Assembly: GCF_013167455.1 (NCBI RefSeq)
Contig: NZ_CP038328.1
From: Escherichia coli O157:H7
GTDB taxonomy: Bacteria; Pseudomonadota; Gammaproteobacteria; Enterobacterales; Enterobacteriaceae
Direction: 5' to 3' (one strand)
Length of the DNA: 64,000 nt
In this document: positions 54,401 through 57,400 of the stretch, in pieces
Layout of the letters: every line of letters begins with the position of its first letter
Numbering within the stretch: position 1 is the first letter of the stretch
Program-made: the position numbers

Positions 54401-57400
54401 TCTGGCTGGTCCATTGATGGCGATGGTTACCACCATGTTGGGGGCAATATGACAGGTTTAAAAATGGCGAAAGTCGGTCTGCGGGAACAGAACCGACTTT
54501 CAGGTGCAAATCGTAACACACTCATTGCGGGAGGAATTATGGCAAACACTGCTGAGATATTCAATTTTCCTGTGCCGGATGCGGCACAAAAGGAGCCGCG
54601 CGTGGCAGATCTCGATGATGGTTATACGCGCATTGCAAATGAGTTGCTGGAAGCTGTAATGCTGGCCGGATTAACACAGCACCAGCTTCTGGTCTTCCTG
54701 GCTGTCATGCGCAAAACATATGGCTTTAATAAAAAACTGGATTGGGTGAGCAACGAGCAACTTTCCGAGTTGACCGGGATATTGCCGCACAAGTGTTCTG
54801 CTGCAAAAAGTGTTCTGGTAAAGCGTGGGATTTTTATTCAGAGCGGGCGGAATATAGGCATTAATAATGTGGTCAGTGAATGGTCAACATTACCCGAATC
54901 AGGTAAGAAAAATAAAGTTTACCTGAAAGAGGTAAATTTACCTGAATCAGGTAAGAAAAGTTTACCCAAATCAGGTAAAGGCACTTACCCGAATCAGGTA
55001 AACACAAAAGACAAACTAACAAAAGACAATATAAAACCTTATTCGTCCGAGAATTCTGGCGAATCCTCTGACCTGCCAGAAAACGACCTTCCTGTGGTGA
55101 AAGCGGATGCTGCGATTCAGAACGGCAGCAAGTGGGGGACAGCAGAAGACCTGACCGCCGCAGAGTGGATGTTTGACATGGTGAAGACCATCGCGCCATC
55201 AGCCAGAAAACCGAATTTTGCAGGGTGGGCTAACGATATCCGTCTGATGCGTGAACGTGATGGACGTAACCACCGCGACATGTGTGTACTGTTCCGCTGG
55301 GCCTGCCAGGACAACTTCTGGTCCGGTAACGTGCTGAGTCCGGCCAAACTCCGCGACAAGTGGACCCAGCTCGAAATCAACCGAAACAAGCAACAGGCTG
55401 GCGTGACAGCCGGCAAACCAAAACTCGACCTGACGAACACTGACTGGATTTACGGGGTGGATTTATGAAAAACATCGCCGCACAGATGGTTAACTTTGAC
55501 CGTGAGCAGATGCGTCGGATCGCCAACAACATGCCGGAACAGTACGACGAAAAGCCGCAGGTACAGCAGGTAGCGCAGATAATCAACGGTGTATTCAGCC
55601 AGTTACTGGCAACTTTCCCGGCGAGCCTGGCTAATCGTGACCAGAACGAACTGAACGAAATCCGCCGCCAGTGGGTTCTGGCTTTCCGGGAAAACGGGAT
55701 CACCACGATGGAACAGGTGAGCGCCGGAATGCGTGTTGCCCGTCGGCAGAATAGACCATTTCTGCCATCACCCGGGCAGTTTGTTGCATGGTGCCGGGAA
55801 GAAGCATCCGTTAACGCCGGGCTGCCAAACGTCAGCGAGCTGGTTGATATGGTTTACGAGTATTGCCGGAAGCGTGGCCTGTATCCGGATGCAGAGTCTT
55901 ATCCGTGGAAATCGAACGCGCATTACTGGTTGGTTACCAACCTGTACCAGAACATGCGGGCCAATGCGCTGACTGACGCGGAATTACGGCGCAAGGCTGC
56001 CGATGAACTGACCTGTATGACAGCGCGAATTAACCGTGGTGAGACGATACCTGAACCAGTAAAACAACTTCCTGTTATGGGCGGTAGACCTCTAAATCGT
56101 GCACAGGCTCTGGCGAAGATCGCAGAAATCAAAGCTAAGTTTGGGCTGAAAGGAGCAAGTGTATGACGGGCAAAGAAAGATTCTTCGTTACTTGAAGAAA
56201 TACAGTGTTTATTGTTCTTTTGAGATGTTGCGAAAACAGGAATTACCACGGTAAACATTTTGTAGCTGACCCATGCATTGATGAAATATTGTGGGTATTT
56301 AATAGAGCATAATTATCAAGTTGCGTAAGATGTGGAGTAATGGTATGGGCGGTGTTAGCACCGCCTTTAATTAAAGCTCAGAAAGCTGTGATAATATTTT
56401 TTCTGGAGTGGTTTCGTTGGAAATGCTAAATAATACAGCACCTTTGACTGATTCATCTCTCATTTCAATTTCACATGAATTATGGTTGTATGAGATTGCA
56501 TAATTTTTTAATGTTCTTTCGCTTTGCCACCACACCATATTTGCAAGACTTCCGTTATACGTTCTTATCTCGATTGATCCGGGCAGGGCTTTCCAGATAA
56601 CACCTCCTAGCAATGTAAGAGCGGCTGCACCAACATTTTTTGCATGATGGTTAGAACGTTCCATTACCCCTTCAGCATAACGATGAAGAATCTCTATGTC
56701 AGTCGCTTTGATAGTCATGTTATTTCCATGTAATTGCTGTGTGAAACGTAGTGTTAGTTAGGTGTTAGCAGAATATAGCATCAAAGTCGAAACCGGTAGA
56801 AAAAATATTGGTGATTATTTCGCTGCATTTGGAACTGGAACAACAATGATTATTAGCATGATTGCTTTTTCCAGTCATAAGAATGAGTCGTGTTAATTTT
56901 TTCTATTCAATAGGAAATTATCATGTCATCAGAATATGAACAACTACGGTGACTTCTGCGCTAAACGGGGACGTTTATGCGCACATACAATCCAAACTCT
57001 CTTCTCCCTCCACAGATGCAGAAATACACCTGCGATTTTTTGCATTCGGTGTTTTTGGCAGCCAAGAACAGGGAGTCTCTGTTTGTCTGGCGGCTAAAGG
57101 TGATATGGAAATCGTGATGTCTTAGCCTAAAGTAGTTGCAACAGTTGGAGCGATTATGGTGGTAGTAGTGATCATCGCGCCCCCCATATGCAAGGGTTGA
57201 CGACATTATTTATCCGGCGCTATATTCTGTGCGTTGCCGCAAAATCGGCACACGGGATTGGCGTCCCGGACATCAAAACGACGCATAACCGCGTTCGCGG
57301 TTTTTTTATGCGCAGTGCACGTCTACACAAAAATTATGGTGGGCTGTGTGAGGGCTTCTTCGGAAGCGCCGGATTTCGTTTTGACCGGTTACGCCAACCT

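Follow-up and report, generated by a model that had tools for sequence, protein, structure and literature searches.

An IsrK/C4-type RNA module upstream of an antirepressor gene in a lambdoid prophage of Escherichia coli O157:H7

A lambdoid prophage of E. coli O157:H7 carries a promoter-like sequence, closely followed by a terminator-like hairpin and then by an antirepressor gene, which raises the question of whether this arrangement belongs to a small RNA, an attenuator, a terminator of other transcripts or simply coding sequence. The window analysed here is a stretch of 64,000 nucleotides, and our results make it very probable (about 0.88) that the flagged region is the promoter and IsrK-type leader RNA of an RNA switch over the antirepressor gene, similar to that of the immI operon of phage P1. 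The features on which this reading is built are listed below, with positions in the window.

57197-57226, + strand: predicted sigma-70 promoter, with -35 TTGACG (57197-57202), an 18-bp spacer and -10 TATATT (57221-57226); 10/12 consensus positions
57233, + strand: predicted transcription start (G)
57233-57307, + strand: IsrK-type sRNA, the 5' leader carrying a1 and b1 (Rfam RF01394)
57258-57264, + strand: a1, UUGGCGU, in the loop of IsrK hairpin 2; 7/7 Watson-Crick pairs with C4 57391-57397
57273-57281, + strand: b1, UCAAAACGA, in the single-stranded linker 5' of the terminator; 9/9 pairs with b' 57376-57384
57287-57307, + strand: intrinsic terminator of IsrK, stem 57287-57292 / 57297-57302, U run 57301-57307
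57332-57419, + strand: C4-type antisense RNA (Salmonella STnc1160, P4 CI type; Rfam RF01695)
57376-57384, + strand: b', UCGUUUUGA, in the loop of C4 hairpin 2
57391-57397, + strand: a', ACGCCAA, in the internal loop of C4
57423-57429, + strand: a2, UUGGCGU, in the ant leader; matches a' 7/7
57452-57460, + strand: b2, UCAAAACGA, in the ant leader; matches b' 9/9
57471-58079, + strand: ant, antirepressor of 202 aa with Bro-N and P22_AR_C domains (Pfam, PHROGs, PGAP CDS WP_001415151.1)

The order on the + strand is promoter, IsrK, C4 antisense RNA and ant, with the isrK and C4 matches 25 nt apart, and the gene content of the window places the module between replication gene P and ninB. The synteny of IsrK is therefore preserved, with C4 at 57332-57419 and then ant at 57471-58079, in an order that recurs in 15 other loci, those of Gifsy-1, P1 and 13 further phages of E. 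coli, Salmonella, Klebsiella and Yersinia. The RefSeq annotation has nothing over the IsrK/C4 element, and the C4 RNA and its four target sites were also absent from the initial annotation of this DNA. C4 is the key partner, and the mechanism cannot be understood without it and these sites. In the O157:H7 sequence NZ_CP066753, the stretch homologous to 57190-57480 is 1819390-1819680.

The IsrK-type leader and its predicted C4 partner

Promoter and hairpin motifs alone prove nothing in this region, because such hits are found at chance level and the leader is not exceptionally stable. Promoter-like sites number 10, against 11.0 +/- 3.5 expected from shuffled sequence, terminator-like sites number 11 against 7.3 +/- 3.5, and the folding energy of the 78-nt leader RNA is not unusual (z = -1.1). 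Since consensus scans and folding energy were uninformative, the site was judged by covariance models and comparative data, and what sets the region above chance is the Rfam match, the alignment of its promoter with those of P1 and Gifsy-1, the co-variation of its hairpins and the presence of the terminator in all loci. The sigma-70 match described initially (ttgacg, 18 bp, tatatt) is indeed present at 57197-57226. Its boxes fall in the same alignment columns as those of the annotated P1 promoter P1c4 (once called P51b; TTGACC...TATAGT) and also align with the sequence 5' of the mapped Gifsy-1 IsrK 5' end, and the position of the -35 and -10 elements is conserved across 16 loci; promoter function in O157:H7 is predicted from the alignment to these two promoters. 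Inspection by eye did not reveal a LexA-type box (CTGT-N8-ACAG) at the promoter, and no C1 operator was recognised there. Gifsy antirepressors are under LexA control.

The Rfam isrK model (RF01394) matches 57235-57307 over its full length (1-77) with 64.1 bits against a gathering threshold of 50, and with E = 2e-11 when computed for the entire 64-kb window against all 4227 Rfam families. With the Rfam c4-a1b1 model the score is 40.6 bits (E = 3.9e-8), short of the 46.7 set as its cut-off; this value is also missed by 6 of 11 relatives scored (including P4), and the DNA of the window passes the overlapping isrK model. Minimum free energy folding gives three hairpins after the promoter, at 57235-57250 (loop CAAAAU), at 57253-57268 and at the terminator, so that the initial annotation was right about the presence of hairpins and wrong in counting two. 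Hairpins 1 and 2 co-vary across the 16 loci, with 93.8% of cells paired and 7 of 12 pairs altered on both sides, and none of 500 shuffles did as well. The Rfam family name of IsrK suggests Hfq binding; the main text of the EHEC Hfq-CRAC paper makes no mention of IsrK.

The terminator-like hairpin with a T run that had been noted earlier was also recovered, as an AACCGC/GCGGTT stem at 57287-57292 / 57297-57302 followed by the run. The run is of seven consecutive T (57301-57307) and not eight; an A and then another T come after it, and two of the seven lie inside the stem. With 6 bp, a GTTC loop and -8.1 kcal/mol when folded alone, this weak stem is consistent with partial read-through. A terminator is found in 16/16 loci, with stems of 5-10 bp, -7 to -11.5 kcal/mol and a U-rich tract of 4-7 U; stem sequences differ among loci, and those of Gifsy-1 and P1 are at the long end of the range. 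These figures come from folding each of the 16 loci separately, because MAFFT alignment A1 left the terminator stems out of register. Segments 57282-57288 and 57306-57312 can pair into a co-varying outer helix around the U run, one that can form only in the read-through RNA.

The P1/P7-type c4 antisense system is represented in Rfam by RF01695, RF03163 and clan CL00128, and the C4 model (RF01695) matches the window with 82.5 bits against a gathering threshold of 45 (E = 1.1e-14). The fold, common to 16 loci, combines an internal loop of 8 nt with a 17-bp stem and two hairpins. The 77-nt c4 of P1, with its annotated ends, served as the model for the mature form, which is predicted to be the RNA of ~79 nt at 57338-57416 (GGUGGG...CCACC). 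These ends are conserved, and release of C4 from its precursor by processing, putatively with RNase P acting at the 5' end, is predicted on the same analogy.

Site a2 begins 4 nt past the end of the Rfam C4 match (57419) and 7 nt past the predicted mature end (57416), while b2 ends 10 nt 5' of the ant AUG at 57471 and its duplex can be extended over 57451-57464, to 6 nt before the AUG. The extended duplex reaches the position of the ant Shine-Dalgarno sequence, which is weak (GAGA), and since it is weak there is no clear overlap with it; occlusion of the Shine-Dalgarno by C4 is therefore proposed from position. In relatives, b2 adjoins GGAGG, 7-10 nt 5' of ATG. The predicted duplex of IsrK with C4 reaches -30.5 kcal/mol, against -27.6 for the ant leader. 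Compared as whole molecules in RNAduplex, IsrK and C4 gave no significant pairing (101/500 shuffles), a comparison that is uninformative because both RNAs are long and GC-rich; the informative tests of pairing are those with the exposed a'/b' segment and the matrices of cognate and non-cognate sites.

Co-variation and relationship to known phage systems

The comparison set of 16 loci comprises that of the window, those of Gifsy-1 and P1 and those of the 13 further phages, with P4 left out. Across these loci the a' and b' sequences of C4 co-vary both with the IsrK sites a1 and b1 and with the ant-leader sites a2 and b2. There are 5 specificity classes of a', each matched 7/7 by a1 and a2, and about 13 classes of b', and most copies of the module have a' in common and differ in b'. 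The longest match of b' to its cognate b1 has a mean of 7.4 nt, compared with 3.9 nt for non-cognate pairs, and the corresponding means for b2 are 8.1 and 4.4 nt. The specificity of the switch is set by its b' and a' stretches. What the loci show directly is the presence of the sequence elements, the families to which they belong, how far they are conserved and this three-way co-variation.

One of the nearest described systems is the IsrK - STnc1160 - orf45 - anrP locus of the Salmonella prophage Gifsy-1 (Rfam RF01394; Padalon-Brauch 2008, PMC2330248; Hershko-Shalev 2016, PMC4825925). As in the window, a promoter is followed by an sRNA of ~75 nt with three hairpins and its own terminator, a C4-like RNA ~25 nt further on and an antirepressor start ~50 nt beyond it, and the two loci share the a' specificity (ACGCCAA/UUGGCGU) and a 45-codon ORF from an AUG in the 5' strand of C4. 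They differ in b', which is UCGUUUUGA in the window and CGGUGAU in Gifsy-1, in the 45-codon ORF, which continues in frame into ant in the window but stops in Gifsy-1 on an AUGA shared with the anrP start, and in the antirepressor domains, Bro-N and P22_AR_C here and ORF6N in AnrP. The Gifsy-1 module is located downstream of the Q-like antQ; since that of the window lies between P and ninB, the AntQ branch of that cascade does not necessarily hold here.

In Gifsy-1, transcription from the isrK promoter partly ends at the IsrK terminator to give a 77-nt sRNA and partly reads into orf45-anrP (PMC4825925). This characterised homologue supports the earlier suggestion of a short RNA or attenuator with regulated read-through into the Bro-N gene (PMC4825925). 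The long RNA, through which anrP is transcribed from the IsrK promoter, is translationally silent, IsrK supplied in trans lifts anrP translation more than 100-fold, and STnc1160, the C4 homologue, also requires the isrK promoter (PMC4825925). Compensatory mutants (G28A/C162U and G31A/C159U) proved the pairing (PMC4825925), and we mapped the mutated positions onto a1/a' pairs.

The window resembles P1 in promoter position, in the placing of a1/b1 upstream and a2/b2 downstream of an antisense RNA (putatively processed in the window), in the C4 fold, in a b2 site close to the probable ribosome-binding position of the first ORF and in a terminator-like hairpin between b1 and c4; the position of a2 is also comparable. 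The order in the P1/P7 immI operon (Citron and Schuster 1990, 1992) is P51a/b - a1 b1 - c4 - a2 b2 - icd - ant1/ant2. In the P1 record (NC_005856), promoters, a1, b1, c4, a2 and b2 are annotated from experiments, with b2 as the repression site for icd-ant translation. In contrast to P1, the window has no icd, with ant directly after C4, no recognised C1 operator and different a'/b' sequences, and the host element is a lambdoid prophage and not a P1-type plasmid prophage. The P1 leader aligns too poorly to rank as a close relative of IsrK.

The immunity region of the satellite phage P4 has the order PLE - seqA - CI RNA - seqC. Its seqA scores as isrK (60.8 bits) and its CI as C4 (74.9 bits) with the order kept, but unlike in the window these elements are followed by the replication operon, and no antirepressor gene is controlled. 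SeqA was considered a structural homologue of IsrK by Hershko-Shalev et al., and the P4 RNA causes premature termination of transcription of the replication operon, being itself the immunity factor (PMC4825925).

The initial annotation had turned to P22-like phages for comparison, which proved to be the wrong family. The sar RNA of P22 is like the regulator proposed for the window in being a small RNA that blocks translation of a phage antirepressor. It is read off the strand opposite to ant and overlaps the ribosome-binding site of that gene, whereas the regulator in the window is on the same strand, upstream of its target, and would make two short loop contacts. No Rfam match to sar was obtained at E <= 1, and no minus-strand promoter-like site was found at 57400-57700, the 5' region of ant, so neither a sar-type RNA nor a convergent promoter was found. 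The true relatives are P1/P7 immI, P4 immunity and Gifsy-1 IsrK.

Proposed mechanism and alternative explanations

That these RNAs are expressed and processed, and in which direction each of them acts on regulation, is inferred here from homology to P1 and Gifsy-1. Transcription would begin at about 57233, and some polymerases would stop at the weak terminator (57287-57307) to release an IsrK RNA of ~75 nt that would display a1 in a hairpin loop and b1 in the single-stranded linker. Polymerases that read through would give a precursor from which the C4 of ~79 nt (57338-57416) would be excised, with the ant mRNA after it. C4, through its exposed a' and b', would pair with a2 and b2 in the ant leader and mask the ribosome-binding region, keeping the antirepressor silent. 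IsrK is a near-continuous copy of the C4 target with the stronger predicted duplex, and for this reason it would be expected to compete, in cis or in trans, for the a'/b' region of C4; by remodelling the long transcript or by titrating C4, it would permit ant translation.

The published models disagree at this point. The P1 record (NC_005856) gives C4 as the repressor and assigns a1/b1 no more than a 'putative' role, whereas the authors of the Gifsy-1 study proposed that activation comes from a refolded long mRNA together with orf45 translation (PMC4825925). A simple titration model is disfavoured, since constitutive STnc1160 did not counteract IsrK in Gifsy-1 (PMC4825925). The coupling step of Gifsy-1 cannot operate likewise in the window, since here the 45-codon ORF runs on in frame into ant.

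It is extremely improbable that the region serves only as a terminator for transcripts from upstream (nin region, early rightward operon), with a promoter match that arose by chance and no sRNA. The location between P and ninB, where lambdoid phages carry terminators, would suit such a role, as would the chance-level number of promoter-like matches and the further terminator-like hairpins immediately upstream, at 57017-57034. However, the -35 and -10 positions are conserved in 16 loci and coincide with the experimentally defined promoters of P1 and Gifsy-1, and the stretch from promoter to terminator is a conserved, co-varying RNA with target sites for the C4 downstream. Beside its function in IsrK, the terminator may have a secondary role in ending upstream transcripts. 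A self-contained cis attenuator, such as a riboswitch, a leader peptide or a protein-dependent antiterminator, without a trans-acting RNA, would have the typical layout of promoter, structured leader, terminator and gene, and it could draw on the co-varying outer helix over the U run, restricted to read-through RNA, and on the related CI RNA of P4, which works on termination (PMC4825925). We consider this very unlikely, because no Rfam cis-regulatory family matched at E <= 1, a conserved alternative antiterminator pairing was not seen, the variable positions are exactly those complementary to C4, and IsrK works in trans in Gifsy-1 (PMC4825925). Pairing of C4 to nascent a1/b1 could possibly modulate the terminator, but this would extend the reading as an IsrK/C4 switch and not replace it.

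There is likewise little chance that the region is coding and gives the Bro-N protein an N-terminal extension from TTG 57234 or ATG 57336, as an 'Ash domain' fusion. No stop interrupts the frame between 57234 and 58079, ATG 57336 shares this frame with ATG 57471 and a like fusion occurs in 5 relatives, two relatives have annotated long CDSs through isrK and C4 that match Pfam Phage_ASH, sub-threshold ASH matches are seen in the window, and in Gifsy-1 the ORF from the homologous AUG is translated (PMC4825925). Yet ORF length and frame are not conserved, with 8-45 aa and stops in 8 loci and other frame offsets elsewhere, and the closest relative (90% identity) differs by 2 nt in the length of the b' loop and has a stop before ant. 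The ASH matches in the window switch between two frames, and sequence change obeys the rules of RNA pairing. In addition, the P1 annotation puts the mature 5' end of C4 inside the AUG codon, so that processing would destroy the upstream AUG; an extended Ant isoform may occasionally be made from AUG 57336 on unprocessed RNA.

The start of ant also speaks against such an extension. Pfam finds Bro-N and P22_AR_C, and PHROGs 'anti-repressor Ant' aligned from residue 2, confirming the initial view of the gene as a Bro-N antirepressor. The Bro-N domain begins 14 residues after M80 of the long frame, M80 is ATG 57471, the Bro-N and Ant family profiles begin at this methionine, and the PGAP CDS also starts at 57471. 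By alignment, TTG 57234 would sit at position +2 of the transcript, and the frame is broken or shifted in 10/16 relatives. The ant gene starts at ATG 57471 and the TTG 57234 frame is non-coding, as had been suspected. No separate icd-type small ORF was found between C4 and ant, whose start comes ~50 nt after C4.

Prevalence and implications for annotation and prophage induction

The IsrK/C4 element is a copy of an already known phage element and introduces no new principle. The module has been described in P1/P7 (1990-92), P4 and Gifsy-1 (2008, 2016), and its families are already in Rfam. It is present in one third of complete E. coli genomes, in up to six copies per genome, and among the matches listed its RNAs are left unannotated by RefSeq in all matching E. 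coli genomes. For annotators, the ~240 bp upstream of ant contain two RNA genes and no coding sequence. The 'Ash domain' of Pfam (PF10554), a family drawn on to annotate phages and satellites, appears to be a translated non-coding RNA module and no protein domain. Some phage records treat the IsrK/C4 RNA module as protein.

The element would decide whether the prophage antirepressor gets made, and antirepressors can move prophages out of lysogeny into lytic growth, co-resident Shiga-toxin prophages among them. A candidate target of this Ant is the XRE-family repressor encoded in the same prophage. As a tentative and rather doubtful proposal, IsrK could be a dedicated decoy or target mimic for C4, and co-resident modules could form a combinatorial RNA 'immunity code' with partial cross-talk; such a code is possible because a genome holds up to six copies, most with a common a' but different b'. 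If true, prophage inductions would be coupled in polylysogenic EHEC, through IsrK/C4 cross-talk on the antirepressor switches of other prophages. PADLOC returned nothing for Ant; a HEPN protein encoded downstream is a weak PADLOC candidate match (PDC-M28A).

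The IsrK and C4 RNA genes ahead of the antirepressor gene

When the whole window was scanned against Rfam with the curated thresholds, two adjoining matches were returned on the plus strand, isrK (RF01394; 57235-57307, 64.1 bits, cut-off 50, E = 2e-11) and the C4 antisense RNA (RF01695; 57332-57419, 82.5 bits, cut-off 45, E = 1e-14), the second of which had been overlooked in the initial annotation. A permissive second scan, to E <= 1, added c4-a1b1 (RF03163) at 57220-57272 with 40.6 bits, under its cut-off of 46.7, and no further family, P22 sar included, so the analogy with P22-like control that had been proposed is wrong. 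The element belongs to known, curated families that have been studied by experiment. A lambdoid prophage of E. coli O157:H7 matches the window at 100% identity; for it, PGAP gives only the CDS 57471-58079 ('P22AR C-terminal domain-containing protein') and leaves the two RNAs without annotation.

Hairpins and recognition sites of the module
57235-57250, plus strand: IsrK hairpin 1 of the fold, loop CAAAAU
57253-57268, plus strand: IsrK hairpin 2 of the fold
57258-57264, plus strand: a1, in the loop of IsrK hairpin 2, complementary to a'
57273-57281, plus strand: b1, in the IsrK linker, complementary to b'
57287-57302, plus strand: terminator hairpin, stem AACCGC/GCGGTT, then a T run
57376-57384, plus strand: b' UCGUUUUGA, loop of the second C4 hairpin
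57391-57397, plus strand: a' ACGCCAA, C4 internal loop
57423-57429, plus strand: a2, in the ant leader, complementary to a'
57452-57460, plus strand: b2, in the ant leader, complementary to b'

The promoter and terminator-like hairpin of the initial annotation are present: TTGACG and TATATT (57197-57226), separated by an 18-bp spacer, match 10 of 12 consensus positions of the sigma-70 type, and the AACCGC/GCGGTT stem is followed by its T run. The fold holds three hairpins rather than two, and the run has seven T instead of eight (57301-57307, with AT after it). Promoter-like and terminator-like matches were no commoner in the surrounding 7 kb than in shuffled sequence, the folding stability of the leader RNA was not unusual (z = -1.1), and by themselves the promoter and hairpin motifs are no evidence.

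Comparison was made across 16 loci, namely the window, Gifsy-1, P1 and 13 further phages from E. coli, Salmonella, Klebsiella and Yersinia. In the joint alignment the -35 and -10 boxes of P1c4 fall on TTGACG and TATATT of the window, and alignment with the mapped 5' end of Gifsy-1 IsrK predicts a transcript start at 57233. IsrK hairpins 1 and 2 are 93.8% paired over these loci, both partners are changed in 7 of the 12 pairs, and none of 500 shuffles and no slid register came near this value. In each locus a short GC stem of -7 to -11.5 kcal/mol precedes a U-rich tract. An outer helix across the U run (57282-57288 with 57306-57312 in the window) shows compensatory changes among loci (CGCAUA/UAUGCG, CGACA/UGUCG, CGAUA/UAUCG) and is possible only in read-through RNA. 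The loop of IsrK hairpin 1, CAAAAUC (57240-57246), is nearly invariant in 11 of the 16 loci, though the specificity sequences vary.

The C4 fold, a 17-bp stem around a tetraloop hairpin, a second hairpin and an 8-nt internal loop, is the same in all 16 loci. Its exposed segment is predicted to form duplexes with IsrK 57253-57282 (-30.5 kcal/mol) and with leader 57420-57465 (-27.6 kcal/mol), and the b2 duplex can be extended to 57464, 6 nt before AUG 57471. The recognition sequences fall into five a' classes (ACGCCAA, AGACCAA, GUAGCAA, GUGCUAA and CUGUCAA), each matched 7/7 by its own a1 and its own a2, and about 13 b' classes, for which the longest Watson-Crick match averages 7.4 nt with cognate against 3.9 nt with non-cognate b1, and 8.1 nt against 4.4 nt with b2. 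The parts of the module, its family membership and its co-evolution are established here. About 18 nt 3' of C4, GGUGGUG (57434-57440) is complementary to CACCACC (57410-57416) of the C4-stem 3' strand, a complementarity which co-varies and is present in all 16 loci (GGUGGCGA/UCGCCACC in phage 24B); the alternative hairpin would hold a2 in its loop and could not form together with the C4 stem.

The same module is found widely. In Gifsy-1, isrK is followed by C4, by anrP (an antirepressor gene) and by isrJ, ordered and spaced as in the window, and all 13 further phages have isrK, C4 some 25 nt on and then an antirepressor-type gene (Bro-N, Rha or ORF6N). The P1 record lists promoters P2c4/P1c4 (formerly P51a/b), 'putative' targets a1 and b1, a 77-nt c4 RNA, targets a2 and b2 ('repression of icd ant translation'), icd and ant1/ant2; its sites have a similar order and similar intervals, a1 lying 8 nt before b1 in the window and a2 being separated from b2 by 22 nt, against 21 nt in P1. 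In P4, which lies outside the 16 loci, the seqA region scores as isrK and is followed by the CI RNA, which scores as C4. The 188-nt IsrK+C4 stretch occurs in 1825 of 5426 complete E. coli genomes (34%), at up to six places per genome and with 91 copies on plasmids; most copies have a' in common and differ in b', and among the records listed no RefSeq feature is annotated under the match.

Reading frames over the RNA genes

As the initial annotation had suspected, the frame that is open from TTG 57234 does not represent a gene here. Pfam Bro-N begins at residue 94 of this 281-aa frame, 14 residues past M80 (ATG 57471), and is followed by P22_AR_C; PHROG Ant profiles begin to align at residue 2 of the 202-aa product, and PGAP also starts ant at 57471. 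With a transcript start at 57233, moreover, TTG 57234 would be without a leader.

The frame from AUG 57336, in the 5' strand of the C4 stem, varies in length and phase among relatives: it is closed by stops after 8-45 codons in 8 loci, whereas in the window and five others it continues in frame into the gene downstream. Phage IdasGreatGrand, 90% identical, shows both a 2-nt length change in the b' loop and a stop ahead of ant. The Gifsy-1 counterpart, orf45, is a translated frame whose AUGA overlap couples it to anrP, and its conservation is, according to the authors of that work, of nucleotide and not amino-acid sequence (PMC4825925). In the window (57336-57473) this ORF has exactly 45 codons and no stop; whereas the orf45 stop overlaps the anrP start in Gifsy-1, here it runs into ant, so that either the coupling step must differ or an extended Ant isoform would arise from unprocessed RNA. 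In structure, this fusion alone truly sets the module apart from its characterised homologue.

Pfam PF10554 (Phage_ASH, 'Ash protein family'), cited in the literature as a protein domain of unknown function, matches the translated isrK-C4-leader exactly in two relatives, both with over-long annotated 'Rha/antirepressor' CDSs. In the window (57188-57475) two fragments match it below threshold, each in a different frame. These matches suggest that a conserved RNA gene underlies what was built as a protein family.

PF10554 matches
L012 (a relative with an over-long CDS), nt 869-1156: aa 117-212, over isrK-C4-leader
P4 8330-8521, minus strand: obsolete 'cI protein' CDS over the CI RNA gene

Proposed mechanism and its alternatives

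In P1/P7, processed c4 RNA represses Ant protein synthesis. In Gifsy-1, anrP transcription is driven by the isrK promoter, which STnc1160 (the C4 homologue) also needs; the read-through RNA is translationally silent (280 units from a transcriptional fusion versus 4 from a translational one), and IsrK supplied in trans lifts anrP translation >100-fold (PMC4825925). The helix defined there by high-expression mutants G28A and G31A and compensatory C162U and C159U (PMC4825925) maps in the present analysis to a1 (UUGGCGU) and a' (ACGCCAA), which makes the published 'helix b-I' the contact between a1 and a'.

From these homologues we infer the steps in the window. IsrK would be released by partial termination, and C4 plus ant mRNA would come from read-through; C4 would mask the ant initiation region through a2/b2, and IsrK, presenting the same target more compactly, would compete for a'/b' and open the mRNA. 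Its main action could be titration of free C4 or refolding of the long transcript; in Gifsy-1, constitutive STnc1160 failed to counter IsrK (PMC4825925), which argues against pure titration. The earlier proposal of a short RNA with regulated read-through into the antirepressor gene was essentially right.

The hairpin might instead terminate an upstream transcript, belong to a coding N-terminal extension of Ant or act as a self-contained attenuator, but each of these readings conflicts with the conservation of the promoter, with co-variation of the RNA type or with the evidence of action in trans, and even taken together they are unlikely.

The bracketed cassette and neighbouring features

Direct repeats of 162 nt with 81% identity (56893-57054 and 59215-59376) bracket a cassette of promoter, IsrK, C4, ant, HEPN gene and orf133. 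Both copies include a hairpin resembling a terminator (57017-57034 and 59339-59356), and in each a small ORF begins that precedes ninB/ybcN; the arrangement looks like the scar of insertion or exchange of a mobile 'moron' cassette. The HEPN gene and orf133, whose product has no Pfam match, overlap downstream of ant and may be a toxin-antitoxin or defence pair. Downstream of the gene for antiterminator Q, tRNA genes, STnc100 and AgvB make up the 'moron' site of convergent sRNAs that has been described in EHEC prophages. A SIR2-family gene lies beside the repressor gene of this prophage.

Neighbouring features
15395-15472: naRNA4 (REP-type element), Rfam
33201-33281: Peptidase-S11 leader motif, Rfam
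56371-56718, minus strand: VCH_CASS14 'integron cassette protein' homologue gene, 71.7 bits, between P and the IsrK module
58379-58795: HEPN-domain protein gene, Pfam HEPN 27.8 bits, weak PADLOC candidate PDC-M28A
58774-59175: orf133, 133-aa protein gene, phrog_5760, function unknown
61763-62011: three tRNA genes
62124-62316: STnc100, Rfam, 160.7 bits
62317-62378, minus strand: AgvB (anti-GcvB sRNA), 96.5 bits, identical to consensus
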